Shown: one piece after another, positions 2,317 through 62,498 of the stretch
How positions within the stretch are numbered: the first letter of the stretch is position 1
Layout of the letters: each line of letters begins with the position of its first letter
Source: a virus
Length of the DNA stretch: 64,000 bases
Reading direction: 5' to 3' (one strand)
IMG/VR virus record: IMGVR_UViG_3300046804_003518
Location: 1 to 64,000 of that record
Position numbers and translations under genes: made by a program
The notes under the pieces: model-generated
Told to the model about the DNA's origin: nothing
The model's input: only the letters and a program-made list of their open reading frames with translations
The model's database searches: none

Positions 2317-2319
2317 CTG

Positions 2320-2376
2320 TTGAATTATAGAATGTGTTGTAGTAGAATACTAAATATTTACTGAACACTAAATATT
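2320..2376 (+). promoter_or_regulatory. sigma70-like promoter overlapping tandem late-promoter-like boxes
   Basis: TTGAAT(2320)-17 bp-TAGAAT(2343); ACTAAATATT direct repeat at 2349 and 2367. Confidence 0.55.
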
Positions 2377-2391
2377 GAGGAATCTGTAAAT

Positions 2392-2562
2392 ATGTCCGAC
2401 AATAAAGTTTTGAATCTAGCCCTTACAGTAGAAGAATTGAATCTTGTTCTTGGTGCTCTTGCTGAGCTTCCATATAAGGTTTCAATGAATTTAATTGCTA
2501 AGGTTAGTAACCAAGCCCAGCAACAGTTGCAGGCTTCCACACCAGAGGTTGATAATGGCTAA
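2392..2562 (+). CDS. small hypothetical protein (missed by ORF track)
   Basis: 56 aa MSDNKVLNLALTVEELNLVLGALAELPY...; GAGGA upstream. Confidence 0.75.
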   Translation: MSDNKVLNLALTVEELNLVLGALAELPYKVSMNLIAKVSNQAQQQLQASTPEVDNG

Positions 2563-2770
2563 TAGAAGTGACTTTCAATCAGACTTCCCTCGTCAGTTCA
2601 AGCGCATGCTTGCATTGGAAGAGGCAAGGGGCATGATTAAAGATAACCACGAACGTGGCGAAATGAAGCGTGTATGGCTTGCTGCCCATAAGCATCATCG
2701 TGACTATGTCAATAAGCGTGGCACAATGGCAGTTGGTCAGAACATTGCATTGGAAGAAGGTTCTGAATGA
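2555..2770 (+). CDS. hypothetical protein
   Basis: Probable start MANRSDFQ at 2555, overlapping the upstream stop. Confidence 0.65.
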   Translation: MANRSDFQSDFPRQFKRMLALEEARGMIKDNHERGEMKRVWLAAHKHHRDYVNKRGTMAVGQNIALEEGSE

Positions 2771-3057
2771 ACACAATAGACCACTTCGGTAAAGAGTTAA
2801 TTCTCAAGCCTATCAATAAGGTACGTGTCCGTGCCGTTGATAAGAAGTGGAATGTTGAGTATAGAACTAAGAAGTGGATCTTCAATATCTGGAATGTTGA
2901 AGGTCAGTACAAAGACTTCGTTGATGCTAAGGCAAAGGCGCTTGCCCTAAAGGCACAGGGTGGTATATTCATCCTTCAGGATATGAAACTCGAGTGGGAT
3001 GTTGGTGAGGATGAGCCTCATGTTGAGGAACACCCACCGATTGATGATCCTATCTAA
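2767..3057 (+). CDS. hypothetical protein
   Basis: 96 aa ORF with ATGA overlap. Confidence 0.65.
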   Translation: MNTIDHFGKELILKPINKVRVRAVDKKWNVEYRTKKWIFNIWNVEGQYKDFVDAKAKALALKAQGGIFILQDMKLEWDVGEDEPHVEEHPPIDDPI

Positions 3058-3072
3058 TAGGTAATCTATATT

Positions 3073-3309
3073 ATGGATTCACGACAACAAACTATTCAAT
3101 ATCTAATGCTCGAGGCAAGCGAACTTACTAAAGTTTGCGCTGAGGGGTTGATGGCTGTCCATAGAAATAAAGCTGATGCAAAGATTGAACTGCAAGTAGC
3201 GTCAGTTCTCAATGCTATTAAAGAATCAATTCAACAGCTTGATTTTAATGAAGAGCGCATGATGGCTTCTGCTGAGAAAGAACAACTAAGACGCGAGAGG
3301 GAATTATAA
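3073..3309 (+). CDS. hypothetical helical protein
   Basis: 78 aa ORF, TAATG-coupled to the next gene. Confidence 0.6.
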   Translation: MDSRQQTIQYLMLEASELTKVCAEGLMAVHRNKADAKIELQVASVLNAIKESIQQLDFNEERMMASAEKEQLRREREL

Positions 3310-3767
3310 TGGAACAGGATATTGATACGAAGGCCTATTTTACATTTGATTATGAATCCGAAGGTAAGAATGTTACCCTAAGATTCAATAAGCAGGATGC
3401 ACGAGTGCCAGAGGTCCTTGAGGAGTTTTTAAACTTTCTAAAGGCTTGTGGATACTGTTTTGATATTGACGACTATCTTGATGTCAACAACGACTTCAAG
3501 TATCCAGCATCGGATAGTGAACCAGATAGTGAAGATGTTGTTTCTCACGAAGAGGCTGAGGCAAAAGCATACCAACAGGCTGCTAGCTGGACTATGACAG
3601 ATCCTAATGCTGGTCTTAATCTAACAATGGCTGATATGGATTATCCAGAACCAGAAACCACAAACTTCAGTTTCAATGATTATGGTAACAGCTGGGTCCC
3701 AGCTAACTGGGACAACTTAAACTCTTCAGCTAACTCGACAACCACTTTTAAAGTACAGGATTACTAA
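3309..3767 (+). CDS. acidic hypothetical protein
   Basis: 152 aa ORF with a T4-like phage-type N-terminus (EVLEEFLNFLKACGYCF). Confidence 0.65.
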   Translation: MEQDIDTKAYFTFDYESEGKNVTLRFNKQDARVPEVLEEFLNFLKACGYCFDIDDYLDVNNDFKYPASDSEPDSEDVVSHEEAEAKAYQQAASWTMTDPNAGLNLTMADMDYPEPETTNFSFNDYGNSWVPANWDNLNSSANSTTTFKVQDY

Positions 3768-3768
3768 C

Positions 3769-3858
3769 ATGCCAGCTAAAACAGGTATTAAAGGATACGG
3801 TAAAGGCAGAGCAAAGCTAGGTTCTAAGAAGCGTAAGGCTCGCCGCAAAAAGACCTAA
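3769..3858 (+). CDS. 29 aa highly basic peptide
   Basis: MPAKTGIKGYGKGRAKLGSKKRKARRKKT*; exactly fills the gap, starting 1 nt after the upstream stop, with TAATG overlap to the next gene. Confidence 0.6.
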   Translation: MPAKTGIKGYGKGRAKLGSKKRKARRKKT

Positions 3859-4121
3859 TGACAAAAGTAAATTCAGTTACACCCAAGTATGATATTACTT
3901 GGTATGTAAAATGGACTGCTAGCGTCATTACACTTGTTGCCATTACAGTGAGAGCCAGTGGAGTGATGGAGCTTCATTGGCTTGATCTTTTCTGTAGTTG
4001 GCTTGGTGCTGTTGGCTGGTTCTATGTTGGCTTCAAGTGGAACGATAGAGCAATCATGGTTTTGAATGGCGTGATTGGTGTTATATTGTTTGCAGGAATG
4101 ATAAGGATGTATTTCACGTGA
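3858..4121 (+). CDS. small membrane protein (about 3 TM helices; DUF6552-like)
   Basis: Hydrophobic segments; WNDRAIMVLN motif. Confidence 0.6.
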   Translation: MTKVNSVTPKYDITWYVKWTASVITLVAITVRASGVMELHWLDLFCSWLGAVGWFYVGFKWNDRAIMVLNGVIGVILFAGMIRMYFT

Positions 4122-4606
4122 AGATTAGAATTGGAAAGTACCCAAAGAAAGGCGAACAAAAGATATCAATTCATATTGATCCATGGGATACTTGGTCTAT
4201 GGATCGTACACTTGCGCTTATCGTTCATCCGATGCTCAAGCAGTTGCATAAGACGAATCATGGTGCGCCTTGTACTGATGACGAAGATGTGCCTGAGAAT
4301 CTTCGTTCTACGAATGCGAAGCCGAAGAAGAATGAGTGGGATACAGACTCCAATCACTTCAAGCGTTGGGATTGGATTATGAAGGAAATGGTCTGGGCAT
4401 TTGGTGAACTTGCAAAAGATCGCGACCCATCCTTTCTTATCAAGAAGGGTAAATACAAGATGGTGAAGAAGGAAGGACAAGATTGGAGCGAAATGGTAAC
4501 TCTTGTCGAACCAGTTTATGATATGGAGAAGATGAAAGCATATCATGAGCGCAAGAAGAATGCCTTTCGTTTATTCGGCAAGTATTATGAAAATCTTTGG
4601 GATTAA
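4118..4606 (+). CDS. conserved T4-like phage hypothetical protein
   Basis: GTG start; IHIDPWDTWSMDRTLA...RWDWIMKEMVWAF...GFRLFGKYY-like C-terminus. Confidence 0.7.
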   Translation: MKIRIGKYPKKGEQKISIHIDPWDTWSMDRTLALIVHPMLKQLHKTNHGAPCTDDEDVPENLRSTNAKPKKNEWDTDSNHFKRWDWIMKEMVWAFGELAKDRDPSFLIKKGKYKMVKKEGQDWSEMVTLVEPVYDMEKMKAYHERKKNAFRLFGKYYENLWD

Positions 4607-4608
4607 TT

Positions 4609-4899
4609 ATGAAACGTCAATGGCGATATGTTGATAAAAACATTCACTACTATTTTCAAACTAATGATGGTCAAGTAATTGGAAAAGCATACAACGTTGC
4701 TTTAACTATTATTTGGGGTGCAAAGATTCCTATTAATGCTACTGAAGAACTAATTATTGGGGAATTTGTTGAACTAGAATATGCTAAATTAGCAATCGAA
4801 AGATATTGGAACGAGAAGGATAGGACCTTTGATATGTTCGATGATGTATATAAGTTGCCCGCAGGGATTGTAGATGAGCCAGCCGGTAAGAGTTTTTAG
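4609..4899 (+). CDS. hypothetical protein
   Basis: Probable start MKRQWR at 4609. Confidence 0.6.
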   Translation: MKRQWRYVDKNIHYYFQTNDGQVIGKAYNVALTIIWGAKIPINATEELIIGEFVELEYAKLAIERYWNEKDRTFDMFDDVYKLPAGIVDEPAGKSF

Positions 4900-5431
4900 A
4901 GAATTTATAACTCCACAAGATCACAAAGAGTTATTAAATTCAGCTATGATGCTCTACAGCAATGGTATCATGCGATCAAACGTAAGAGGCTCATTCAGAC
5001 GGTTCTTGTCCCTTGATAGGGATTGTGATCAGAAATTCTTCTTTCCAAAAGTGCAGCATTTGTATAGTAGAATTTCAAATGTTCTACAAATAACTGACCC
5101 TGTGATAGACCCATCTCTTGGTATTCTACTAAGCGTAATAGAACCAAATGGCTTTATACAGAAGCACAATGACCCTTACAAACAGGATAAGGACAAAGTC
5201 AACCTAAGATTCAACATAATGGTCAACCGTGGCCCCTCAGAGGCCTATAACCCTCGTGTTGATAAAAAGTTGTACCGAGTGGAAGAAAGAGATGCATGGT
5301 TATTTAATGCAACAGATTTTTACCATAGCACATTGGCCAATCCTGGTCCAGAACTAAGAATTGTGTACCAGTTTGGGTTTATGGTTGATAGAGCATTCCT
5401 ACCTTCTCTTGACATTGCTGCAAAGGTATAG
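4874..5431 (+). CDS. 2OG-Fe(II) oxygenase-like protein
   Basis: HxD (KHND), distal His (YHST) and C-terminal Arg (LRIVY) in a DSBH-like pattern. Confidence 0.65.
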   Translation: MSQPVRVFREFITPQDHKELLNSAMMLYSNGIMRSNVRGSFRRFLSLDRDCDQKFFFPKVQHLYSRISNVLQITDPVIDPSLGILLSVIEPNGFIQKHNDPYKQDKDKVNLRFNIMVNRGPSEAYNPRVDKKLYRVEERDAWLFNATDFYHSTLANPGPELRIVYQFGFMVDRAFLPSLDIAAKV

Positions 5432-20294: not shown

Positions 20295-22291
20295 TGAAAG
20301 AACTAGAAAAGTATATATCGCCATTCATTGCTAATCAATTCCCTTCTATCTATAAAGAGGAAGGTCCTCTATTCATTGCATTTGTAAAAGCTTACTTTGA
20401 GTGGCTTGAATCACAAGACCAGGTAATTTACGATTCAAGAAGACTTCTTGAATACAGAGATGTTGATAAGACAGTGGATGTCTTTATTAATAACTTTAAA
20501 AAGAAATATATGTTTCCTATTCCAGATGATATTGCTGGCGATAAGAGACTGCTGCAGAAGCATATTAAAGAAGTTTATGGCTCAAAAGGCACAGAGCGTG
20601 GGTTAAAGCTTCTATTCCAATTATTGTTTGCTGATAATATTAGCGTCTATAAGCCAGGTGATGATGTTCTTAGACTATCAGATGGCGAATGGAATAGAGA
20701 CATTTATCTAGAGGTTTCTTACAAACCCTACAATAGTTTATTTGTGGGTGAGTTTATTAAGGGCCGCATTTCTGGTGCAAGAGCATATGTCGAGAGCTTT
20801 CAGACTAAATTTGTTAACAATAAAAACATTAACGTCTTTTACTTAACAGACGTTGTTGGTAACTTCAGAAATGATGAGGTTGTAATTATTGATGAGGCAA
20901 GGTTAGCGGAGGGACAAGTACCAGCTGTTACAGCAATCAATTCTCCAAAGATTATTGGTTCCATGACAGAAGTGGATGTTGCCAATAGAAGTTCACCATT
21001 TGGTTATTCGGTTGGCGATATTTTGGAAGTCCAGGGTAAAGGCTCTCGCGGTAAAGTTGTAGTAACAAAACTTAAAGAATTGGATGGCACAATTACATTC
21101 AATCTTGAAGATGGAGGATCCGGTTACACAATTAATAATACAGTTTTTCTAATTAAGGGTCCTGTAACTGGTGTTGTGGTTGAGAATGGTGGAGTTGGTT
21201 ACTCAAATTCTGATTATATCGTATTCTCTAATGGAACTGCTAATGCAGTAGCCAATTTAGTAACTGATGGATCAGGTACTATTCTCAACAACACTGCTGG
21301 TGGTGATACCTTATTCACCATTACTCATGGTGGCAATGGATTTTTAACTACAAATGTATTCACCGTCTCGGTTACAGTTTCAAACTCAACTGGTGGTCCT
21401 TCTGCAGGTGCTGGTGCCAACCTTGTTCCTACAATTGCAGGCGGTGGCGATTTGGCAGGACTAAGAATTGGTGCATTGTCCAACATTAAGTATTTGTTTT
21501 CTTCGGCAGCTAAAATCAATCTTGTAGGCAAGTCCCTTAACTACATTGGTACAGCAAACAGTGTTGATAATATGCTTGTTGGTCAGTTGTCGTATCCTAC
21601 AGGTACAGGGTATGGCTTATCGTCAAACGTTGCCGCAGGTTTTGATACTATATTAAAGGATGCTTTAAACTATCAAAATTATGAAGTTGGTACAATCTCA
21701 AAAATCTTTACAACAAATCCTGGTCAAGATTATACTACAAATGTGCAGATTACAGTCACCGACACTATCATTGGTTTAATGGGTTTATTGGATAAGGAAC
21801 ATCCGGCGGGCCGTGGCGACACTGGTAATGGTTACCTAGGCAATAATGCAGTGGTAACGGGAGTCAGTGGTTTTGGTTCAACGGCTCTTGGTGAAGTTAA
21901 GGTTATTGATTCTGGTCTTGGTTATGAACAAAGAGAGGAAGCAACCCTTGTATCTCTATCAAATACAAACCTTATTACATCTGGCACAGTGTTACTAATG
22001 AAGCAAGGTCAGGGCGAAGGATTCTTTAAATCTACTCGTGGCTTTTTAAACTCTGACAAGTATATTCACGATAGTTATTATTATCAAGATTATTCATATG
22101 AAGTAAGATCGTCAGTAGTATTTAATAAGTATAGCGATCTTCTAAGAAAACTTTGGCACCCAGCTGGTGTGGAGAAGTTTGGTCGCGTGCTTGTAAGTAG
22201 TGAAGTAACATCTGCCACACCAGATGTTCTACAGCAGGCATACATAGGGGATGGGTCAACGACGTCGTTTGAAATCCCGGGTGGGGCATGA
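20294..22291 (+). CDS. 7: baseplate wedge initiator (gp7-like)
   Basis: IKEVYGSKGTERGLKLLFQLLF; DSYYYQDYSYEVRS...LWHPAG motif; follows gp6. Confidence 0.75.
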   Translation: MKELEKYISPFIANQFPSIYKEEGPLFIAFVKAYFEWLESQDQVIYDSRRLLEYRDVDKTVDVFINNFKKKYMFPIPDDIAGDKRLLQKHIKEVYGSKGTERGLKLLFQLLFADNISVYKPGDDVLRLSDGEWNRDIYLEVSYKPYNSLFVGEFIKGRISGARAYVESFQTKFVNNKNINVFYLTDVVGNFRNDEVVIIDEARLAEGQVPAVTAINSPKIIGSMTEVDVANRSSPFGYSVGDILEVQGKGSRGKVVVTKLKELDGTITFNLEDGGSGYTINNTVFLIKGPVTGVVVENGGVGYSNSDYIVFSNGTANAVANLVTDGSGTILNNTAGGDTLFTITHGGNGFLTTNVFTVSVTVSNSTGGPSAGAGANLVPTIAGGGDLAGLRIGALSNIKYLFSSAAKINLVGKSLNYIGTANSVDNMLVGQLSYPTGTGYGLSSNVAAGFDTILKDALNYQNYEVGTISKIFTTNPGQDYTTNVQITVTDTIIGLMGLLDKEHPAGRGDTGNGYLGNNAVVTGVSGFGSTALGEVKVIDSGLGYEQREEATLVSLSNTNLITSGTVLLMKQGQGEGFFKSTRGFLNSDKYIHDSYYYQDYSYEVRSSVVFNKYSDLLRKLWHPAGVEKFGRVLVSSEVTSATPDVLQQAYIGDGSTTSFEIPGGA

Positions 22292-25200
22292 GTACAATAG
22301 TTGTCAAAGTAAATGGAGTACTACAGGTACTAGGTACGGATTATACCGTCTCTGGTAACAATATTGTATTTGCCAATCCACCAGATGCAAATGCAAAAGT
22401 GGAGATTAGAAAGGAAGCAGCCAGAAGTGTTTTAGAGACAAGCTTCAAAATTGATCAGATCAGATTGACAGAACTTGTTACTGCATATAGCACACAAACA
22501 ACTGTATCTTCCACATTCAATACATCTATTGGCACAGGCACCACAACAGCGTTTGTCACTGCGTTCTCAACATCTAAGACAACAGATAGTGCAGTTCTTA
22601 CATCCAAGAACACAACAACAGCTTATATTTCTGTATTTGATACAGTATTCAATACAAGTAAGTCAACAACAACTCAATTTGTTACTGCCTACCAAACTGT
22701 ATTCAATACTATTTCAACATTTGATACAACAATTCTTACTTCATACGCCACAACAAAAACAACATCTACTGTATTTGAAACAACAGGTGTTACAAGTAAG
22801 TCAACTACTACAACATATAACACTATCGTCACAACTGTATACGATAGCAATAGAACAACTTCAACTGTTTATAGTACGGCCTATACAACAACGTTTACAA
22901 CCCAAACAGCATATGCAACAACAAGAAACACTGTATATGATACTATTGTTGCCACACTGACAAGCAAAAGCACAGACACAACAGTTGCAACATCAACAAG
23001 CATTAATACTGTATTTGTAACAGCTTATGGTACTACCACTGTATTTAATACAACAAAAGATACTAACCTTTCAACAGCAAAGTCGACAGACACAACTATT
23101 GCTACTTCAAAGGCAACAAATACAACAACTACATTTGCTACAATTTACGATACAACTGGTTCAACATCTAAAAATACAACAACTGCATTCTTAACTGTAT
23201 TTGATACAGCCAAGACAACATCAACTTTATTTGCAACAACATTTGATACAACGTTTGTTACAAATAAACTAACATCAACTAGCAAATCAACAACTTCTGT
23301 ATTCAACACAACAACCACATTTATTACAACATTTGATACTGGTTACGATACTAGTAAGTCAACAACATCGTTGTTTAATACGACAACAACATTCAATACA
23401 TCATATGCAACTAACTTTGCAACGACAACAGCATTTGAAACAAATGTAGCAACCCAAACCGCTGTATCACAAAATACTGCCAGAAATACAACTACAATAT
23501 TCAACACAGCAACAAGCAAATCAACTACAACAATATTCAACACAGCAACTACGTTTAATACAACGTATGCAACTAACTTTGCAACAACAACCTCGTTTGA
23601 AACTAATTTCATTACAGCAACAAACCGTGGAACAAGTAGAGCCACTGATACAACTGGCTCAACAAGTAGAGCAACAGGTACTTCAAGAGTAACCACAACT
23701 GTATTTAATACAACAACTGTATACGATACTGCAACAGCATTCCAAACAAGTACAATATTCCAAACACAGACAACCGCAGCTGGCTCAACAACATTCTTGA
23801 CAGCAAATGAAGTTACATTTCAAACCTTTACTATAAAGGGTACTGGTGCAAGTTACATTACAACGTACCAAACAAGCTATGATACAATTATTGGCTATGG
23901 TAAGGGTGGTTTACCAATCTATGGCCAGACATATTTCAATACATCGAAATCTACACAGCCTTTAACTGCGTTTTATTTCCAGACCACAGCTGTGGGTGTA
24001 ACTGTGACAACCTATGCAACTTACACATACCTACCTCAAGGGTTTGGTTATGTGTTTTTTGATACAACAAAACTAACAGCCACGGCAAGTAGACTTACAT
24101 CAAGAGGTACGACATTCTATTTTCAAACAGATACAAGTAGAAGTACAGACACATCTAGAGCCACAAGTACATCTAGAGCCACAAGTACGTCTGCATCAAC
24201 AACCACTGCATATGATACTTCAACAACGTTTGGCACTACGTATCAGACAACAACCTCGTTTGTAACGACCTTTGACACATTAACAATATTTGGTACATCT
24301 AAGAGCACAACAACAGTATTTGATACAGCAAGAAGTACTGCTGCTGCCACAAGCACAAGCGGATCAACTACATCTGTATTTGATACAGCAACGTCAGCTG
24401 TAACATCAACGACCTTTATTACTACCTATCTAGCAGCTACAACAACAGTATTTGTAACATCTAAGAGCACAACAACAGTCTTTGATACAGCAAAGGCCAC
24501 GAGTGCAGTAACTGCCACAAGTGCGGCCACATCCACTGCATTCAACACTCTTGTTTCAACTTCTAACACAACAAGTAGAGCAACAGCAACGAGCGTTGCC
24601 ACAACAACTGTATTTGATACATCTACAGCATATGATACAAACATTGCAACTGTAAGAGACACATCCAAGTCAACAGCTACAACATACGAAACTAATTTTG
24701 GCACAAGTGCTGTCACAGCAACAGTGTTTAATACTGTATATAACACGGTAGGAGCTACCCAAAAAGCAACTGCTACGACAACAGTCTTTAATACAGCATA
24801 CGCCACAACAACAACATTTGATACAGTATACCAAACCGTATTTAATACAAACAAAACAACCGATACTTCTATCAACACCTCAAGATCTACATTGGGTACA
24901 ACAGGATCTGTATATCAAACATCTACAGCATATAATACCCAAACAGCATTTGAAACAAACAGAAACACGGTATTTGACACTGTTGTGGCAACAGACACAT
25001 CTCGCGACACAATTATCTTAACATCTAAGAGCACAACAACATCATTTGAAACGGCAATTAATACTGGCTATGACACAAGCAAGTCTACAACATCCGTATT
25101 CAACACAGTATTCAATACTGCCAAAAATACAACCAGCGTATTTGACACAACAATTGATACTTCATATGCTACAACAAAAGCCACTGCAACATCAAAATTT

Positions 25201-28200
25201 ACAACAAATTTAACTGGAAGAAGTACAACCAGCAGCTTTGACACAGCTTATGCAACTGCAATTGCAACATCCAAAACTACATCAACTGCATTTATTACCG
25301 GGTATGATACAACAACTTTGTTTGATACTTCTACTCCTACAACAAGAAACACCCTTACTCAATCTGTTTACTCAACCACTTCAAGCACATTGAAGGGCAC
25401 TGATACTGCCATCTTAACAGAATATAGAATTCTCGCAACTCAAACATTGTTTAGTACTAAGTATGAAACCACATATGAAACAATTGCTGGTGTACTAACA
25501 ACAATTTCTACGGATGTTGTAACCAACAGAACAACTAATACTGCATACGCATTTGAAAGTAGAAATACGTTAAGGGATACTGCTTTTCAAACAACAAATC
25601 CAACATTGATTGCCACAACAACATTATTCCAAACATCATACAATACAAATCAGATCACACGCTTTGTTACACTTAACACTGCCTTTGGCACAAGTAAAAA
25701 TACATCAACAGTATTTGATAAAGCCACTACAACTGTATTTGCAACAATAAGTGCATTTGATACTGTAAAGACCACAGACTTCTCTACATCACGTAATACG
25801 TTAATTACTTCTTCAACAGCATTTGAAACAAGTAAGACAACTCTTGTAGCAACTGGTACATCTAGAACTACTACCTCTTCGTATCAGACAAATATAAACA
25901 CAGTGTTCAATACAGGATACGACACATCCAAGTCAACAACATCGTTATTTGTTACAGCATTTTTAACTGTCTCAACTTTTGAAACTAATAAGACAACCTC
26001 AAGAACAACAACGCTAACTAAGGGCACAGAAATTCTCACTTTCTTTGCTACATCTCAATCAACTGTTAAGCCAACAAGCACAACGCGATCAACAGTTTAT
26101 GTTAGTGACTTTGTCACCGTCTCCCGTACTACAACATTTGTAACAGGCACAAATGAAGTAACGTCATTTGATACTAAGAGGGGTACAAACATTGATACAG
26201 TGTTTGATAGCTCAACATCTTTCTTAACGAGCTTTAACACTACTCTTAATAAGACCACAACAGCAATTACTAATAAGAGTACAACTACAGGATTTGACAC
26301 TTTTGTTAACACATCAAAGGTAACTAATGTTGCAACATCCACAGATACGTTAACTTCATTCAATACAATAACTGGCTTTTTGACATCATTTGATACAAAC
26401 AAGACGACACAGAGTTCAAAATCAACTGTATTCAATACTGCGTTTGACACAACGTTTGCCACAACAAAGTCAACATCCACAAGTAGAAGTACAACCACAT
26501 CTACAAGTAAAAGTACCTCGACGGCATACGATACAACAAAGAGTACCGTTAATAATACGAGCACAACTTACCAAACCACATTCCAAACAGATTCTGGTGC
26601 CGGCACTCTACATAACACATCAGCTTTAACAACTGGTCTAACCGGTACTCTTACTTCTTCAGTTACAGTTAAGTTAACAACAGTTGACACAACTAAATCA
26701 ACAGAAACACAGTATCTGATGTCAAGTAGCTATGGGACAGGTACTGTATTTGAAACTGTTGTCGGTACAGCATACGAAACATCAACAGTATTTAATACGA
26801 CAACTGCATTTAATACTGATACAGTATTTAACACCACAACAACCTTTCAAACAGATTCTGGTAAGGGTACATTGAAGTCGACCTCTAAGTCTACTGCAAC
26901 AAGTTACGCTACTGGCACAAGTAAAAATACATCCACATCAAAAATAACATTAACAGCAAGTGGTACGTATTATATTTCTCAAAGAAATACTACATCTGCC
27001 TATGACACAACAAAAAATACAGCTGGTGGATTAACAAGTCGAGCCACAAGCACGTCAGACACCACAACAACTGTTTACCTAAGTGCCTATCAATCAAACA
27101 TTAACACGACAACAACATACTTGTCGTCATACTCAACTGTCATTGATACAAGCAGACAAACGCAAGCTCTTACATCATTTGGAACATCAAGAACTACAGA
27201 AACAATATTCCAAACTGCCGCTTTAGGTGGCACTCTATTCAATACAACAAAGAATACAACTACCGCATTTGATACAGTTTATCTCATTACACAATCTGTT
27301 GCCTCAACTGCTACCACATTTCAAACTGATTCTGGAGCTGGTACACTAAAGAATACATCTCAGAACACAATTACTGCGTATACAAGATTTGAAGGTGGTA
27401 AGCAGACGTCAACTGTATTCTCTACAGCGTTTGCTACAAATCCGTTTGTAACAACTGCATATGGCACATCTAGAACTACAACAACTGTATACCCAACAGT
27501 GTTTACAGAATTTGGTACATCTAAAGACACCACAACTACTTTCCAGACCGACTCAGGCGCTGGTACAATGAAGGCAACGTCAAAGGACACAGTAACAGCA
27601 TTTAATACAATCTATGCAACTGCCCCAGTAACATCAAAGTCAACAACCACATCATTTGACACCATTTATAGTACTGGTATACCAACAACAAGACAAACAG
27701 CCACATTGTTGACAACTGCTACTGCATATGCAACTGAAACTGCAAAAATTACTGGCTCAGGTAAAATTACACAATTTGCAACTACAACTACAATCAACAC
27801 TGATACAGCAAGAGGAACTTCAACTACATTCCAAACGGATTCTGGTAAAGGCACACTTCACAGCACGTCAAGAAATACTCTAACTGGTACATTGACATCA
27901 TTTAACACTACAACTTTAACAATTAGCGACATGCTAACAAGCAAGTCCACTAGCACTACAACAGACCAAGGAACTCTTGTTAATACATCTACAAGCACTT
28001 CTTATGCTACACAAACTGAGTATGCAACCTCAGGTGGTGCAACAGTATTTGGTACCTCAGTAACAACTGAGACAGTCATTGACTTTACAGTTAGAAACAC
28101 GGAATATCAAACGCTAACTTCTGTTGATACATTAACGTATTATGAATCAGGGGATAGACTAACTGCAAAAACTACAGCAATTTTAACTAACACAAATACA

Positions 28201-28395
28201 TCTCAAATTGTTAGAGATACAACAAGAACAACGTCAATTGATACAACGTATATCACAACCTTCTTGACAGACTCAGGCGCAGGTACAATGGTGTCAACAT
28301 CAAAGTCAACATCTAGAACAACTGACAAGATAACAAACACCGATTACGATACAGCAATTCAAACAACATATGAAACTGTTTATATAAATAACTAG
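22288..28395 (+). CDS. 2035 aa Thr-rich self-complementary beta-hairpin fibre protein
   Basis: T-x-T periodicity; mirrored 4/6 spacing with i+j=1109 verified in two windows; six F(Q/L)TDSG(A/K)GT turn motifs in the C-terminal part. Confidence 0.8.
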   Translation: MSTIVVKVNGVLQVLGTDYTVSGNNIVFANPPDANAKVEIRKEAARSVLETSFKIDQIRLTELVTAYSTQTTVSSTFNTSIGTGTTTAFVTAFSTSKTTDSAVLTSKNTTTAYISVFDTVFNTSKSTTTQFVTAYQTVFNTISTFDTTILTSYATTKTTSTVFETTGVTSKSTTTTYNTIVTTVYDSNRTTSTVYSTAYTTTFTTQTAYATTRNTVYDTIVATLTSKSTDTTVATSTSINTVFVTAYGTTTVFNTTKDTNLSTAKSTDTTIATSKATNTTTTFATIYDTTGSTSKNTTTAFLTVFDTAKTTSTLFATTFDTTFVTNKLTSTSKSTTSVFNTTTTFITTFDTGYDTSKSTTSLFNTTTTFNTSYATNFATTTAFETNVATQTAVSQNTARNTTTIFNTATSKSTTTIFNTATTFNTTYATNFATTTSFETNFITATNRGTSRATDTTGSTSRATGTSRVTTTVFNTTTVYDTATAFQTSTIFQTQTTAAGSTTFLTANEVTFQTFTIKGTGASYITTYQTSYDTIIGYGKGGLPIYGQTYFNTSKSTQPLTAFYFQTTAVGVTVTTYATYTYLPQGFGYVFFDTTKLTATASRLTSRGTTFYFQTDTSRSTDTSRATSTSRATSTSASTTTAYDTSTTFGTTYQTTTSFVTTFDTLTIFGTSKSTTTVFDTARSTAAATSTSGSTTSVFDTATSAVTSTTFITTYLAATTTVFVTSKSTTTVFDTAKATSAVTATSAATSTAFNTLVSTSNTTSRATATSVATTTVFDTSTAYDTNIATVRDTSKSTATTYETNFGTSAVTATVFNTVYNTVGATQKATATTTVFNTAYATTTTFDTVYQTVFNTNKTTDTSINTSRSTLGTTGSVYQTSTAYNTQTAFETNRNTVFDTVVATDTSRDTIILTSKSTTTSFETAINTGYDTSKSTTSVFNTVFNTAKNTTSVFDTTIDTSYATTKATATSKFTTNLTGRSTTSSFDTAYATAIATSKTTSTAFITGYDTTTLFDTSTPTTRNTLTQSVYSTTSSTLKGTDTAILTEYRILATQTLFSTKYETTYETIAGVLTTISTDVVTNRTTNTAYAFESRNTLRDTAFQTTNPTLIATTTLFQTSYNTNQITRFVTLNTAFGTSKNTSTVFDKATTTVFATISAFDTVKTTDFSTSRNTLITSSTAFETSKTTLVATGTSRTTTSSYQTNINTVFNTGYDTSKSTTSLFVTAFLTVSTFETNKTTSRTTTLTKGTEILTFFATSQSTVKPTSTTRSTVYVSDFVTVSRTTTFVTGTNEVTSFDTKRGTNIDTVFDSSTSFLTSFNTTLNKTTTAITNKSTTTGFDTFVNTSKVTNVATSTDTLTSFNTITGFLTSFDTNKTTQSSKSTVFNTAFDTTFATTKSTSTSRSTTTSTSKSTSTAYDTTKSTVNNTSTTYQTTFQTDSGAGTLHNTSALTTGLTGTLTSSVTVKLTTVDTTKSTETQYLMSSSYGTGTVFETVVGTAYETSTVFNTTTAFNTDTVFNTTTTFQTDSGKGTLKSTSKSTATSYATGTSKNTSTSKITLTASGTYYISQRNTTSAYDTTKNTAGGLTSRATSTSDTTTTVYLSAYQSNINTTTTYLSSYSTVIDTSRQTQALTSFGTSRTTETIFQTAALGGTLFNTTKNTTTAFDTVYLITQSVASTATTFQTDSGAGTLKNTSQNTITAYTRFEGGKQTSTVFSTAFATNPFVTTAYGTSRTTTTVYPTVFTEFGTSKDTTTTFQTDSGAGTMKATSKDTVTAFNTIYATAPVTSKSTTTSFDTIYSTGIPTTRQTATLLTTATAYATETAKITGSGKITQFATTTTINTDTARGTSTTFQTDSGKGTLHSTSRNTLTGTLTSFNTTTLTISDMLTSKSTSTTTDQGTLVNTSTSTSYATQTEYATSGGATVFGTSVTTETVIDFTVRNTEYQTLTSVDTLTYYESGDRLTAKTTAILTNTNTSQIVRDTTRTTSIDTTYITTFLTDSGAGTMVSTSKSTSRTTDKITNTDYDTAIQTTYETVYINN
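28383..28390 (+). promoter_or_regulatory. T4-type late promoter embedded in the last codons (YINN) of the Thr-rich gene
   Basis: TATAAATA upstream of the gp8-like gene. Confidence 0.7.
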
Positions 28396-56410: not shown

Positions 56411-59400
56411 ATGCCAGGTAAATTATTCTTTAATGACAACGGCACTCTGAGAGAAGCCGAAATTCTGAAAGTCAACGATGGCGGTATTCTACGTACCGTT
56501 AGGGATGCCTATGTTAATCAGAATGGTGTTCTAAGGCAAATTTACTCTGCTACAAAAGATACATCATACGAAACTTCTAGATCAACTGTATTTGAGACAG
56601 TCATTGTCACGACATTTGATACAACAATTTCAACAAATAGAAATACAACAACTGCTTTTGTGACGTTGTTTGAAACTGGCTATGATACAAGCAAGGCAAC
56701 TGCAACAAATAGAAACACTTCTACATCCAGAGCAACTGCCTACGCTACAACAAGAACAACTGCAACTGTATTTCAAACTTTAACCGTATTTGAAACAACA
56801 ATTGGTACTAATAGAGTAACATCAACCTCTAGGGCTACCACGACAAGTTTCCTCACTAACACTGTATTTGAAACAACTATCAATACAGCAAGAAATACTG
56901 CAACTTCTAGAGCTACCACAACAATATTTATTACAAACACTGTATTTGAAACAACTATCAATACAGCAAGAAATACTGCAACCTCAAAATCAACTGCAAC
57001 GGTATTTGACACCAATACAGTATTTGATACAACAATTAATACAGCAAGAAATACTGCAACAAGCAGAAGTACAGATTCTGTATTTGATACTGTAATTGGC
57101 ACAAATAGAACTACTCTATCTGTATTCAATACCGTTACGGCGTTTCAAACAACAACGGCGTTTGAAACTGCTTATGCTACAACCACAGTATTCAATACGA
57201 CAACTACGTTTGATACGGTAATTGATACTGCTCGTAATACAGCAACCACAAGATCTACAACCACTGCTTATGACACTGGGTATGATACAAGTAAGATAAC
57301 AAATACAGTATTCAATACTGGTACAATAAAAGATACCGTTATTGACACATCTAGATCTACTGCAACAAGTATAGCTACAACAACTGTCTTCCAGACGGCC
57401 TATGCTACAAGCAGAGCCACAGCAACTAGCAGATCTACAGATACTACAATTGATACATCTAGAGCTACAGCAACTAGCAGATCCACAGATACTACAATTG
57501 ATACATCTAGAGCAACGGCTACCTCTAGAGCAACTGACACAACAATTGTTACATCTAGGTTGACAGATACGTCTCAATCTACCACAACAACATTTAACAC
57601 AACAACGACGTTTGACACTGCTTACGCAACGACGACGACGTTTAATACTACAACTACGTTTGACACAGCATATGCTACGACAACAACGTTTAATACCACA
57701 ACTACGTTTGATACTATAATTGCAACAACAAGAGCAACAGACACTTCAAGATCAACCACTACTACGTTCCAAACAACGACAGTATTTCAAACAACTACTA
57801 CATTCCAAACAACAACTACGTTTAACACTATTACAACTTATATCACCTCTCTAGGTGGTAACACTGTATTCCAAACAACAACTACGTTTAATACTATTAC
57901 AACGTATATTACCACTCTTGTTGCTGGAACAACTAGAGCAACTGACACTTCAAGATCAACTACTACCACGTTCCAGACAACGACTGTATTTAATACAATC
58001 ACAACGTATATTACTACTCTTGTTAATGCAACTTCAAGAGCAACCGATACATCTAGAGCCACAACTACAACATTCCAGACTACAACTACATTTGGTACTA
58101 CGTTCTTCTTTAATACAAGTAAGGCAACAACATTCTACTTCAATACAACAACTACATTTGGTACTACGTTCTTCTTTAATACAAGTAAGGCAACTACGTT
58201 TTACTTCAACACATCTGTTATTACAACAACAACATTTATTACGTCAGCTGTTGGTCTTACAACGTTTATTACAACGGCTGTTGCTGGTACAAGTAAGGCA
58301 ACGACGTTCTACTTTAACACAACATACATCACAACAGCCGCTGCTGCAACCTCTAAGGCTACAACATTCTACTTTAACACAAGTGTTGGTGGTACTACAT
58401 ATTTCAGCTCAGGGTTCATAACAACATTCTACACAGTGATTGGTATAGCCTATTACAAATGGTGGTCAAACCAGTACTTTGGCAATACAACCAGAGCCAC
58501 ATCTGTAATTACATCCAAGGCTACAACATTCTACTTTGGCACAAGTGCTGGTGGTACTACCTACTTTAATACAACATTCTACTTTAATACAGTTAGAGGT
58601 ACCAGTGCTGGTGGTACTACTTTCTTCAACACTACCTTTTATTTCAATACGTCTAGAAACACGACGTTCTACTTTAACACAGCTAGAGCAACAACATCTA
58701 CCTTTATCACAACTCTAGGTGGTATCACAACATTCATTACAACTCTAGGTGGTACAACATCTAGAGCAACAGGTACTTCAGTTGGTGGTATTACTACATT
58801 TATTACAACATTGGGTGGTACAACATCTAGAGCAACAGATACGTCTAGAGCAACTACAACCACATTCCAAACAACAACAACGTTTAACACTACGTTCTTT
58901 TTTAATACAACTCTTGCTACAGCCACTTCTAGAGCAACAGATACGTCTAGAGCAACAACTACAACATTTCAGACAACAACTGCATTCAACACAACATTCT
59001 TCTTTAATACAACTCTAGCAACTGCAACTTCTAGAGCAACTGATACGTCTAGAGCAACTACGTTCTTCTTTAATACTACTTTGGCCACGGCAACAAGTAG
59101 AGCAACCGATACATCTAGAGTAACTGATACTTCTAGAGCTACTGACACATCTAGAGCTACAACAACAGTTTTCCAAACAACAACAACGTTTGAGACTGCC
59201 TATGCTACAAGCAGAGCTACCGCAACCAGCAGATCTACTGACACAACAATTAGCACATCTAGAGCTACTGCAACAAGTAGAGCAACAGATACAACAATTA
59301 GCACATCTAGAGCTACTGCAACAAGTAGAGCTACAACTACTGTCTTCCAGACAACAACAGCATTTAATACAGCTTATGCTACAACAACGGTATTTGATAC

Positions 59401-60370
59401 TACAACAACATTTGCTACTGCATATGCAACCACAACAATATTCAACACAACTACAACATTTGCTACTGCATATGCTACAACAACGGTATTCAATACAACG
59501 ACAACATTCGACACTGTAATTGATACAAACAAGTCAACTACTTCAGTATTCAATACAACCACAACATTTGCTACTGCCTACCAAACATCAGATGTTAAGT
59601 CAACTAACTTTGATACATCAACTGCCTATAACACTCTTGTTGGTACAAGCAAGTCAACAATATCAACATTTGATACATCTACTACATTTCAGACAGCTTA
59701 TGCAACAAATAGAGTTACTGCTACAGATAGATCAACCGACACTATAATTGGCACTTCTAGAGCAACTGAGACATCTAGAAATACAGCTACTGATAGAAAT
59801 ACCGTAACGGCATTTGAAACTGCATATGCTACAAACATTGCAACAACAACCGTATTTGATACATCAACAACATTTGAAACTTCTTATGCTACTGGTAGAA
59901 ACACATCAACCAACCGTTTAACGACATCGGTGTTTGATACATCAACAACATTTGAAACGACGTATGATACAAACTTTGATACACTAACCAACCGTTCAAC
60001 AACATCGGTATTTGATACATCAACAACATTTGAAACAACTTATAATACAAACTTTGATACACTTACAAGCCGCTCAACAACGTCTGTATTTGATACAACA
60101 ACATCATTTGAAACGACGTATGACACAAATATCCTTACATCAACTTCAAGAAATACAGTATCAACATTTGATACCGAGATTGTAACTGTATTTGATACTG
60201 TAACGGTATTCAATACAACAACATCTTACGACTCGCAATATGGCACAGACCGTGCAACAAGTAAGACAACAACTTCTGTGTTCAATACAGCCTATGCTAC
60301 AAATCGCAATACGGCATTCAACACATCACAAAACACAACATTCAATACAACTATCGAAACATACTTCTAA
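56411..60370 (+). CDS. 1319 aa Thr-rich self-complementary beta-hairpin fibre protein
   Basis: Mirror register i+j=1368 verified at residues 49-173/1195-1319 and 583-673/695-785; apex IAYYKWWSNQY. Confidence 0.85.
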   Translation: MPGKLFFNDNGTLREAEILKVNDGGILRTVRDAYVNQNGVLRQIYSATKDTSYETSRSTVFETVIVTTFDTTISTNRNTTTAFVTLFETGYDTSKATATNRNTSTSRATAYATTRTTATVFQTLTVFETTIGTNRVTSTSRATTTSFLTNTVFETTINTARNTATSRATTTIFITNTVFETTINTARNTATSKSTATVFDTNTVFDTTINTARNTATSRSTDSVFDTVIGTNRTTLSVFNTVTAFQTTTAFETAYATTTVFNTTTTFDTVIDTARNTATTRSTTTAYDTGYDTSKITNTVFNTGTIKDTVIDTSRSTATSIATTTVFQTAYATSRATATSRSTDTTIDTSRATATSRSTDTTIDTSRATATSRATDTTIVTSRLTDTSQSTTTTFNTTTTFDTAYATTTTFNTTTTFDTAYATTTTFNTTTTFDTIIATTRATDTSRSTTTTFQTTTVFQTTTTFQTTTTFNTITTYITSLGGNTVFQTTTTFNTITTYITTLVAGTTRATDTSRSTTTTFQTTTVFNTITTYITTLVNATSRATDTSRATTTTFQTTTTFGTTFFFNTSKATTFYFNTTTTFGTTFFFNTSKATTFYFNTSVITTTTFITSAVGLTTFITTAVAGTSKATTFYFNTTYITTAAAATSKATTFYFNTSVGGTTYFSSGFITTFYTVIGIAYYKWWSNQYFGNTTRATSVITSKATTFYFGTSAGGTTYFNTTFYFNTVRGTSAGGTTFFNTTFYFNTSRNTTFYFNTARATTSTFITTLGGITTFITTLGGTTSRATGTSVGGITTFITTLGGTTSRATDTSRATTTTFQTTTTFNTTFFFNTTLATATSRATDTSRATTTTFQTTTAFNTTFFFNTTLATATSRATDTSRATTFFFNTTLATATSRATDTSRVTDTSRATDTSRATTTVFQTTTTFETAYATSRATATSRSTDTTISTSRATATSRATDTTISTSRATATSRATTTVFQTTTAFNTAYATTTVFDTTTTFATAYATTTIFNTTTTFATAYATTTVFNTTTTFDTVIDTNKSTTSVFNTTTTFATAYQTSDVKSTNFDTSTAYNTLVGTSKSTISTFDTSTTFQTAYATNRVTATDRSTDTIIGTSRATETSRNTATDRNTVTAFETAYATNIATTTVFDTSTTFETSYATGRNTSTNRLTTSVFDTSTTFETTYDTNFDTLTNRSTTSVFDTSTTFETTYNTNFDTLTSRSTTSVFDTTTSFETTYDTNILTSTSRNTVSTFDTEIVTVFDTVTVFNTTTSYDSQYGTDRATSKTTTSVFNTAYATNRNTAFNTSQNTTFNTTIETYF
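56858..57080 (+). repeat. 78-bp coding tandem repeat (about 3 copies), N arm
   Basis: Units start at 56858, 56936 and 57014; the first two share 47 identical nt. Confidence 0.85.
59924..60130 (+). repeat. 78-bp coding tandem repeat (about 3 copies), C arm
   Basis: Units start at 59924, 60002 and 60080 (TSVFDTSTTFETTYxTNFDTLTxRST). Confidence 0.85.
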
Positions 60371-60621: not shown

Positions 60622-61608
60622 ATGGTAGCTGAAGTTCCAGGTAAGGGTGGAAAGAATAAATTCTTTACTATGTCTTCAAATGAGTGGGTAAACGATGATG
60701 TAACCCATTTTATGAAGTCTGGTAATATACTAAGGTCTCCAATCAACGAGAGACTATCCGAAATAGCCAAGCACATTCCTAAGAATCCAAATGGATCCAA
60801 AATTGAGTATGATATCAATTATGGTAGTCCAAGTGGCACAATTGCTGGTTATAAATTTACGGATTTGTTAACTCAGATACTCTATCTTGCTCCATGTAAT
60901 ACCCAAATTGCAACAAAGAATATGATTGATTGCATTAGAAAGGGAGCAACTCCAGAAGGCCATAGAATTGTAGAGGCCCTAAGGGCAAATCTCACCGATA
61001 AGTATCTTTTAGACGAAGACCTTGATCTTGAATACGGCGATGTTAACGAATTAGTGCTCCTCCCAGGTACTAACCTTATAACAAAAGATGCTGTGGACTT
61101 TAAGAAGGTAGACGAACTCTATAATAATGGAGCTTGGGTTAAGCTCCATCCTATTACCGCTAAGGTTTGGCAAACTATGCTTGAAAAAAGATTCAAGGGT
61201 AGAGTTGTAAAAAACGAAGCATCAATGTATCCAATATTGAAGCGCTCAAAGAAGGTTTACTTCACCCTATCCTCTGAAACCGGATGTGCTGCCGTTCTTT
61301 TAGGTAAGGGAATTGGTCTTATTGATAATAAAGAAGCAAAGGTTGGTAAGACATTTGAAGCTGTTTATATGTCACTTGACAGAAGTGGCGTAAAGGATAA
61401 ACTAATTAATAAGTTTGCTGCCCTCATGTCCTACCCTGAATCAGGATTGATTAGCGTTCACCACGAAAATAAAGAAGAATGTATTCAAAGATTTTTTGAC
61501 AACATGAAGCAGCATAGACACGTTACGTTATCAAAGAAGCCTGGTGAAGAAGGGGATGATGTTATTGTAAAAGAGCTAGAACAACAGGGTGGATTGAAGC
61601 AACAATGA
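60622..61608 (+). CDS. KpsC/KpsS-like (capsule synthesis, GT-B) glycosyltransferase-like protein
   Basis: WVKLHP...ILKRSKKVYFTLSSETGCAAVLLGK resembles the K-HP...S..G.EA..GK pattern. Confidence 0.45.
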   Translation: MVAEVPGKGGKNKFFTMSSNEWVNDDVTHFMKSGNILRSPINERLSEIAKHIPKNPNGSKIEYDINYGSPSGTIAGYKFTDLLTQILYLAPCNTQIATKNMIDCIRKGATPEGHRIVEALRANLTDKYLLDEDLDLEYGDVNELVLLPGTNLITKDAVDFKKVDELYNNGAWVKLHPITAKVWQTMLEKRFKGRVVKNEASMYPILKRSKKVYFTLSSETGCAAVLLGKGIGLIDNKEAKVGKTFEAVYMSLDRSGVKDKLINKFAALMSYPESGLISVHHENKEECIQRFFDNMKQHRHVTLSKKPGEEGDDVIVKELEQQGGLKQQ

Positions 61609-62498
61609 AAACTATATTAATTGCCCAACATCATGGTACGTTTTTTACCTTAAATTCTTTAAAAGAAAAAGGTATAACGGATGTAACTATTATTATTCCC
61701 GGTAGCCAAGTTAACAAGTACAATGATATGTACAATAATAACTCTAGCAATCCAGAATATAAGCCATTTGAAAAGTATGACAATTTGGTTTCTTCTTTCC
61801 TAAAGAAGAATAATCTCAATTACAAGGCCTATGTTGTAGAAGATTTTGATGTTAGGAACACATTAGTTTCAACACTAAAGGTTATTGCTGATTTGGGATA
61901 TCAAGAAATTGTAGCGTGCATTTTGAGTGGTACTGTTGTTAATAAAGACTATAGATCAACCGCCAAAGAAGCCTTAAACTTTAAGACATTTGGAATGTGT
62001 TATTCCAGAGTTTATCATGGCCACAATCAGCTCTCAATGTACCACATGCTTGGATTGCCTCAACATGATCCATCATTGGATTTAAACTTTTTTATTGTTG
62101 ACATGAGCAAAATTAAACTTTCTGACTTGCAGAAGGGAGACGGTGAGCTTTTATCTGAGTCTGTTAAGAAAAAGCAAGTAAACATTATTGGTAGAGAATA
62201 TAATGGAAAGGACGATGCGCTAATTGGTACTGCAATTTCTGCTCGCCAAACAATTGCCCACAATCTTAAAATCCAATCAGGTTACATTGTCAACTTATGG
62301 AATAAGTCGATCAAAGCAAATAGTCTATTGAAATCAGAAGAATTCTATGGCTACCCTTTGAATATATACAGCACTCTTGGGGCAAATCTTGACGGGTATC
62401 TACCAAAAAGTACGCTGGATAAGATCATCACGAATGGTAAAGAAACGGAAAAACTCACTAGCGGTCTTTATGAATGTCTGGATATAATTGATCTATAA
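61605..62498 (+). CDS. GT8-like (GT-A fold) glycosyltransferase-like protein
   Basis: DLNFFIVDMSKIK resembles FNSGVMLIDL and GREYN resembles ..YN; no clear DxD. Confidence 0.35.
   Translation: MKTILIAQHHGTFFTLNSLKEKGITDVTIIIPGSQVNKYNDMYNNNSSNPEYKPFEKYDNLVSSFLKKNNLNYKAYVVEDFDVRNTLVSTLKVIADLGYQEIVACILSGTVVNKDYRSTAKEALNFKTFGMCYSRVYHGHNQLSMYHMLGLPQHDPSLDLNFFIVDMSKIKLSDLQKGDGELLSESVKKKQVNIIGREYNGKDDALIGTAISARQTIAHNLKIQSGYIVNLWNKSIKANSLLKSEEFYGYPLNIYSTLGANLDGYLPKSTLDKIITNGKETEKLTSGLYECLDIIDL

Follow-up and report, generated by a model that had tools for sequence, protein, structure and literature searches.

An open reading frame (ORF) of the virus record IMGVR_UViG_3300046804_003518 (56411–60370, + strand) encodes a threonine-rich protein, P0001, of 1319 amino acids (aa) plus stop, in which the two halves mirror each other residue by residue. 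The window analyzed corresponds to positions 1 to 64,000 of the record (64,000 nucleotides), and coordinates refer to it. P0001 is most probably a fibre made by one chain folding back on itself, in which the register would be held by a pairing code, and the length would be changed by paired events on the two arms. This reading, in which we place good confidence, is drawn from sequence patterns in P0001 and its relatives. From the same patterns we infer the fibre role, the hairpin as a physical structure, its oligomeric state, and how much each of the two routes of length change described below contributes.

The mirror code of P0001

Thr accounts for 488 of the 1319 residues of P0001 (37%). His and Cys are missing, Pro and Trp occur once and twice, respectively. 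A two-residue parity is strictly kept from residue 49 to the end of the protein (about 1270 residues). Identity at even offsets is higher than at odd offsets throughout, up to 78 residues, odd positions being occupied by T, F, R, Y, I and K, even positions by T, A, S, N, D and V.

When each odd residue a is compared, gap-free, to residue 1368-a, 315 of 316 pairs agree (Thr/Ser with Thr/Ser, bulky with bulky; phi 0.994). Control registers, obtained by all other shifts, feature on average 160, and at most 213, agreeing pairs out of 316, and chance is therefore excluded. Comparison at direct, non-mirror offsets peaks at a correlation (r) of 0.34, versus 0.99 for the mirror. Mutual information on the coded face measures 1.52 bits, versus 0.3–0.57 at neighbouring registers. 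The second, non-coded face shows a weaker coupling. The mirror analysis works on the coded face only, and scans mixing both faces gave noisy registers.

T:T pairs are the most abundant (166), followed by F:R (61), I:Y (19), F:K (9), F:G (9) and F:A (8) pairs; only 3 F:F and no R:R pairs were found. Bulky residues make 137 pairs. In 74 an aromatic residue is matched to Arg or Lys, in 54 to an aliphatic or small residue; aromatic residues face each other in 4 pairs, cations in none.

The mirror is displayed by one ungapped anti-diagonal, in which the sum of paired positions (S) is 1368. The N arm (aa 49–679, 56555–58447, +) and the C arm (aa 689–1319, 58475–60367, +) measure 631–635 residues each, and the last residue, F1319, is opposite to K49. 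The arms are joined by a 9-residue loop, or apex (aa 680–688, 58448–58474, +), marked by the motif YYKWWSNQ, which contains all the Trp residues of P0001. Alternative apex sequences are found in homologues (YYKGIPLPYY, YFKGQPLQ, LWGQPESW). The apex is a candidate for the distal tip of the fibre.

Facing tandem arrays

Tandem arrays, called at the DNA level by Tandem Repeats Finder, reside in both arms, all on the + strand. Each of the five N-arm arrays faces a C-arm array of the same period and of similar copy number. The outermost arrays are made by 26-aa (78-bp) units, and span 56823–57087 in the N arm (3.0–3.1 copies, 76–81% matches) and 59841–60129 in the C arm (3.7 copies, 83% matches). 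The mirror of N-arm residues 138–217 corresponds to residues 1151–1230, within the C-arm array (aa 1144–1240). A preliminary description of the region had reported 26-aa triplications on both arms, and these arrays bear it out; the unit starts it had given (56858/56936/57014 and 59924/60002/60080) are in frame, and coincide with aa 150/176/202 and 1172/1198/1224.

Two types of 16-aa arrays, R and F, are found in each arm. The N-arm R-type array (TSRATATSRSTDTTID; 57413–57558, 3 copies, aa 335–382) faces a C-arm F-type array (59330–59508, 3.7 copies, aa 986–1033) under the a to 1368-a pairing. Conversely, the N-arm F-type array (TTTTFNTTTTFDTAYA; 57584–57715, 2.8 copies, aa 392–439) faces a C-arm R-type array (59213–59335, 2.6 copies, aa 929–976). 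The reciprocal R/F arrangement had been proposed in the preliminary description, and the pairing rule agrees with it. R-type and F-type units correspond to one scaffold in two spellings, with either Arg or Phe at the coded position, and this difference explains why the two types are opposite to each other.

Two additional pairs, not listed previously, are closer to the apex. A 34-aa (102-bp) array in the N arm (57868–58093, 2.2 copies, aa 486–561) is opposite to a 34-aa array in the C arm (58821–59061, 2.4 copies, aa 804–884), and a 22-aa (66-bp) array (58082–58213, 2.0 copies, aa 558–601) to a C-arm array of the same period (58718–58842, 1.9 copies, aa 770–811). Periods along the gene are thus 26, 16, 16, 34, 22 and 22, 34, 16, 16, 26 aa, mirrored about residue 684. 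Direct duplication of half of the gene would give the same order twice, and did not generate this order. Facing tandem arrays are the local expression of the mirror code spanning the whole protein.

No long nucleotide inverted repeat is found within the gene. Inverted matches are short (14–28 nt, 75–94% complementarity), and none joins facing arrays; the units of facing arrays had already been described as different from nucleotide inverted repeats. An origin of the mirror pattern as artefact, either of low-complexity repeats or of an inverted duplication of DNA, may be suggested by the extreme composition of P0001 and by a sequence built from short repeats. Such an origin has virtually no probability, and was rejected on the basis of the register, direct-comparison and inverted-repeat controls. 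Moreover, facing residues differ in kind (Phe versus Arg), as is impossible by duplication, and the register survives paired indels in the relatives described below.

In each arm the R-type array lies directly beside the F-type array (57413–57715, 59213–59508), so that the arm is also locally self-complementary. Local R/F alternative pairings of this sort are detected when partial homologues are scanned for hairpins. Short local fold-backs could compete with long-range pairing during folding.

Register and paired indels in relatives

Most homologues emerged when viral and metagenome contigs were scanned for the sequence pattern; no further loci were gained from a profile scan. Full-length comparisons include the window gene and four relatives, L001 (1287 aa), L002 (1299 aa), L003 (1169 aa) and L009 (1286 aa). 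Each relative features one gap-free register (S is 1280, 1292, 1216 and 1335, respectively), with phi values of 0.986–0.993 and no more than 2 mismatched positions in about 300. The arms, 591, 597, 559 and 618 residues long in the same order, are changed equally on both sides. No bulge interrupts the 280–318 coded pairs in any of the 5 cleanly assembled full-length genes. In every relative, N-arm arrays detected at the DNA level are opposite to C-arm arrays of the same period. Some periods are restricted to one lineage, as 50 aa in L003, 32 aa in L009, and 44 aa facing 22+20 aa in L001, which indicates that paired expansion arose several times independently.

About 90 gaps are listed in pairwise alignments with the window protein, and all are even in length. 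Clear gaps are mirror-placed, and have the same size on both arms. In terms of window residues, one 26-aa unit is missing from L003 on each arm (171–196 and 1167–1192), and 12-residue insertions are found at 297 and 1058. In L001 three paired gaps, of 16 aa (236–251 and 1117–1132), 16 aa (374–389 and 974–989) and 14 aa (627–640 and 725–738), are accompanied by a 6-residue insertion at 223 and another at 1145. Summed from the hairpin base, the length offsets of the two arms come back into step repeatedly, being 0/0, 10/10, 0/0, -16/-16, -30/-30 and -42/-42 in L001, and differ between arms only within arrays, where the placement of gaps is arbitrary. Paired losses of 22 and 12 aa are found also in L006, a partial sequence which is the closest relative (89% protein identity). 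Independent variation of copy number on the two arms, set against paired expansion in the preliminary description, was not seen in L001, L002, L003 and L009.

Substitutions changing both members of a pair were observed at aligned positions, 1 to 5 per homologue (K:F to Y:I, Y:I to R:F). They agree with the code, and add little weight to it.

In L009 (gene at 1544–5401 of its contig) the sum S is odd, and the coded face therefore includes odd positions in the N arm and even positions in the C arm. Odd lengths are allowed in the apex loop, whereas indels within the arms are always even.

A proposed fold-back ribbon

Residues 49–1319 would fold back at the aromatic apex (about aa 680–688) to form a two-stranded antiparallel beta ribbon, kept in register over about 631 residue pairs. 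If straight, the ribbon would measure roughly 210 nm (at 3.3–3.5 Å per residue). The coded face would be made by every second residue, with Thr/Ser facing Thr/Ser, Phe/Tyr facing Arg/Lys, Tyr facing Ile, and Phe facing Gly, Ala, Leu or Val across the strands. As no slip of the register would be tolerated, selection would keep only changes mirror-placed on both arms, and involving even numbers of residues, so that the coded face is preserved. Arrays would face arrays of the same period and copy number because only mirror-matched length changes are retained by selection.

The fold was predicted by AlphaFold2 for a 61-aa mini-hairpin encoded by the window (26776–26958). The model features two 24-residue strands (residues 2–25 and 37–60; mean pLDDT, the predicted local distance difference test, 83.6), and its predicted symmetry is the symmetry expected from the code. 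A Foldseek search with the model gave no match at E≤0.001. Weak scores accompany even the nearest PDB shapes, namely long beta hairpins from pore-forming toxins and from phage tails.

Stems of this type are not limited to P0001. The ORF 22288–28395 (+) encodes a second Thr-rich protein (2035 aa, 33% Thr) obeying the same mirror code. Its first stem pairs aa 79–503 to aa 606–1030 (S=1109, arms of about 425 residues) around a tip of about 100 aa, the second pairs aa 1131–1275 to aa 1276–1420 (S=2551, arms of about 145 residues). Six short stems, each closed by the turn motif TDSG(A/K)GT, are found in the same protein; the 61-aa mini-hairpin modelled above is one of them. An additional C-terminal mini-hairpin of 56 aa is located beyond the main stem in L001 (8233–8397) and L002 (9733–9897); in it Phe/Tyr residues spaced by 6 residues are opposite to Lys residues with the same spacing (4 times), and the turn is DSGAG. 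Three metagenome proteins (P0002, P0005, P0008; 1306–1416 aa), baseplate-wedge-like on the basis of weak PF23786 matches, carry a C-terminal Thr-rich stem with about 260 residues per arm and loops of 24–100 residues, and the zipper module is thus fused also to baseplate proteins in other phages.

The same code could in principle join different chains. At least two antiparallel copies would associate, the N arm of one on the C arm of the other, just as a palindromic DNA strand may form a duplex rather than a hairpin. Either a rod carrying an attachment domain at each end, or a staggered polymer, would result. The mirror code fits both topologies equally, and phage fibres are usually oligomers. 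Pairing between chains is nevertheless regarded as unlikely. The size of the apex loop ranges between 5 and about 100 residues, parity flips included (L009), and the arms are undisturbed. Moreover, several stems with different centres coexist in one chain, and defy the single register of an antiparallel duplex, and the mini-stem is folded by AlphaFold2 as a monomeric hairpin.

Possible routes of length change and single-arm variants

Repeat units differ in the degree of DNA identity. Units 2 and 3 of the 26-aa arrays have identities of 0.83 in the N arm and 0.91 in the C arm, versus 0.54–0.77 in the other unit pairs. Units 1 and 2 are 0.96 and 0.85 identical on the two arms in the 16-aa R/F arrays (others 0.73–0.81), 0.79 and 0.94 identical in the F/R arrays (others 0.60–0.77). 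Within the window, the most similar units of one arm are thus opposite to the most similar units of the other, a pattern which fits rung-by-rung duplications occurring at similar times. The pattern is not perfect, since homogeneity reaches 98% on one arm and 72% on the other for one array of L009, and each arm is therefore homogenized also on its own.

The local divergence between homologues is itself mirror-symmetric (r 0.66–0.94 in 9 out of 10 pairs, versus about -0.05 ± 0.2 for the null). At the DNA level, L001 and L002 share 94–100% identity along most of the ~420 proximal residues in each arm, and only 44–81% in the distal part. Their central cassettes differ by 12 aa (6 residues per arm). 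Since the distal parts of the arms and the tip make one contiguous segment of the gene, a single recombination patch replaces both, and the register is kept. L001 and L002 differ by a swap of the central segment, which altered both arms in one step. Nested swaps could also yield the internal mirror blocks seen between the window gene and L009.

Two routes of length change may accordingly be envisaged. In the first, recombination would replace the central segment, changing both arms and the tip at once with no mismatched intermediate. In the second, slippage on one arm would generate a bulged variant, later matched on the other arm or lost. The preliminary description had proposed that fibre length evolves by paired expansions at two distant loci. 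Mirror-placed indels in the clean relatives support the pairing; tandem duplication is not the sole route, and the coupling is not absolute. The question of how intermediates survive, raised at the same time, is partly answered by the exchange of central cassettes, while slippage still requires bulged intermediates.

Changes affecting a single arm were seen in three contigs, L006, L008 and L010. The last two depart from L009 in a single C-arm array only, which is made of near-identical 66-bp units. The three contigs are near-identical, derive from one lake project, and are told apart by the copy number of this array. L009 carries three 22-aa units, differing by about 1 nt in 66. L008 has one unit less on the C arm, with 98% identity among its units over 198 bp. 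The L010 contig returns into the same array before it terminates. The L008 and L010 variants are most likely assembly errors, and L008 was discarded as a natural intermediate because of the near-identical units and of the array re-entry in the sister contig. In the source run of the window, Logan contigs are interrupted at every array (56887, 57667, 58111, 59272), making unit counts impossible. Short-read assemblies of these fibre genes are unreliable at arrays, and errors are exposed by the mirror rule, which may serve as internal check of assemblies, wrong copy numbers appearing as register shifts.

Matched arrays might also be the by-product of a few swaps of distal cassettes, the copy numbers of the arms being free to drift and bulges being tolerated. 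The L001/L002 swap is clear, L006 carries an unpaired 10-aa unit in three distinguishable DNA copies, and L008 and L010 deviate from L009 in one C-arm array only. Still, paired indels flanked on both sides by conserved sequences are found internally to the arms (26 aa in L003, 16 aa in L001), the order of unit similarity is congruent on both arms, and the five clean full-length genes are all free of bulges; the loop-back of L010 and the homogeneous units of L008 are typical of assembly errors. This explanation is held improbable, marginally more so than pairing between chains.

Some data weigh against a single chain folded back in strict register. In L006 the third 10-aa unit is present on the N arm only, and the register is 612 proximal and 622 distal to it; either perfect register is not strictly obligatory or the contig may be wrong. 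Full-length evidence comes from five sequences only, and all homologues are metagenome assemblies, in which tandem arrays are error-prone. Mirror complementarity, taken alone, is equally compatible with intra-chain and antiparallel inter-chain pairing. AlphaFold2, run on the 289-aa tip region (aa 540–828) with a 5-sequence alignment, gave an unusable model (pLDDT 33). We know of no precedent for Arg on the repeated face, or for a free two-stranded ribbon of such length, and lateral assembly into a trimer or a barrel may be needed.

The first 900 nt of the L006 contig (L006:1–905) are unrelated to the fibre gene, and the ORF starts abruptly at the equivalent of window residue 350. The contig is probably chimeric at the 5' end, and its unpaired unit, which may be real, is therefore taken only as a candidate for a bulged intermediate.

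Relationship to known systems

The nearest known design is the needle of gp37, the long tail fibre protein of phage T4, which forms the receptor-binding tip (domains D10–D11), has a collar domain (D10) built from residues 811–881 and 1010–1026, and contains seven His-bound iron ions that keep it together (PMC6957217). In gp37 the chain runs to the distal tip and back, leaving N- and C-terminal segments side by side, and the turn binds the receptor; an out-and-back course is strongly implied for P0001 by the mirror code and its conservation. P0001 is different in having no similarity to gp37 in sequence or Pfam domains, and no His residues for iron sites. The out-and-back part measures about 200 residues in gp37, and is about six times longer (about 1270 residues) in P0001. 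Neither a residue-by-residue pairing code nor paired repeat expansion was found for gp37 in the open-access literature. To judge from its sequence, P0001 is not a member of the gp37 tip family.

Long antiparallel two-stranded hairpins with an alternating residue pattern are found in the stems of aerolysin, lysenin and anthrax protective antigen, and in phage tail or portal proteins (tails of phages Andhra and P68), the shapes nearest to the mini-hairpin model (E about 0.01, template modelling score 0.2–0.5). These hairpins share with P0001 neither sequence nor the Thr-rich code, measure 20–50 residues per strand, and occur only as staves of oligomeric barrels. The adenovirus fibre shaft, the beta-helices of T4 gp12 and gp5, and the fibritin coiled coil are likewise thin fibres changing in length by gain or loss of repeats. 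In contrast to P0001, where units are mirrored and changes paired, their units run in the same direction, and the copy number can be changed at a single place. A direct-repeat shaft, whether beta-helix, beta-spiral or coiled coil, is excluded for P0001 by the mirror order of the arrays.

P0001 resembles RNA stems in that distant stretches are bound by a pairing rule, changes are matched, single-sided changes correspond to bulges, and covariation reveals the fold. The code of P0001 differs in consisting of putative side-chain contacts across beta strands, and the DNA of the two arms is not complementary. The likeness is an analogy of logic, not of membership. We are inclined, with some reserve, to view P0001 as a protein evolving like an RNA stem, in which a pairing code, compensatory expansions and swaps of central cassettes would tune the length of the fibre. 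Covariation of indels at a distance is a classic signature of RNA structure; neither a Thr-rich fold-back fibre nor compensatory paired indels in any protein were found in the open-access literature. In P0001 and its relatives, several independent lineages show paired indels as large as whole repeat units, which provide direct sequence-level evidence for a fibre architecture beyond present structure prediction. The appendage would be very long and very thin, and a single recombination event at mid-gene could alter its length and tip. The pair counts can be read as a natural table of the neighbours preferred across the strands of such ribbons. If the reading is true, cross-strand pairing rules can be read from natural covariation, and might be used to design beta ribbons of programmable length.

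Probable attachment domain and genomic context

The first 48 residues of P0001 (56411–56554, +) make a separate domain, which includes three short repeats matching (F/V)N(D/Q)(N/G)G.LR. The repeats are in tandem, measure about 14 aa each, and are exemplified by FVNDNGTLR. The domain is nearly invariant among homologues, and is likely the part attached to the virion. The same 48 residues are found at the head of small unrelated proteins (P0012, P0015; 64–239 aa), and resemble a transferable attachment module. By carrying three repeats, one chain might substitute for a trimer.

P0001 gave no match in Pfam (E≤0.01), PHROG (E≤0.001) or among PDB sequences (E≤1). In large protein databases, one match was obtained by word-indexed search and 13 weak matches by a full HMMER scan, searches which are both limited by the composition bias of the query; no match was found by word-indexed search of the same databases with the N-terminal region alone. 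Searches of phage records with the flank (megablast) and with P0001 (tblastn) gave no match, the Thr-rich query being probably masked by the BLAST low-complexity filter. Look-alikes in the ESM Atlas all belong to clusters of viral hypothetical proteins.

The P0001 gene is located within a block of baseplate, fibre and neck genes. A baseplate wedge gene (phrog_438) and tail-fibre genes (phrog_18673, phrog_2710, phrog_5668) are found upstream, gp13-like (phrog_211) and gp14-like (PF11649, phrog_460) neck genes downstream. The neck protein is 45–47% identical to counterparts in Sinorhizobium phages phiM/phiN and Stenotrophomonas phage DLP_6. Because of these neighbours and of this identity, P0001 is viewed as the product of a structural gene of an uncultured T4-like phage, with a putative fibre role. 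Phage records place the window by the neck protein and one downstream gene only (45–51% identity; DLP_6, phiM/phiN). The P0001 gene lies two ORFs upstream of the gp13-like gene; in T4, fibritin is encoded just before gp13.

The window is part of a single contig of 188 kb (G+C content 39.8%). The sequencing run best holding the window sequence is labelled "freshwater metagenome", the label from which the habitat is taken. Neither of the two ORFs residing between the fibre gene and the gp13-like gene (60622–62498, +) matches a Pfam family at E≤0.01. The first is a member of phrog_26179, a family without assigned function, and shares 51% identity with a gene of Stenotrophomonas phage DLP_6.

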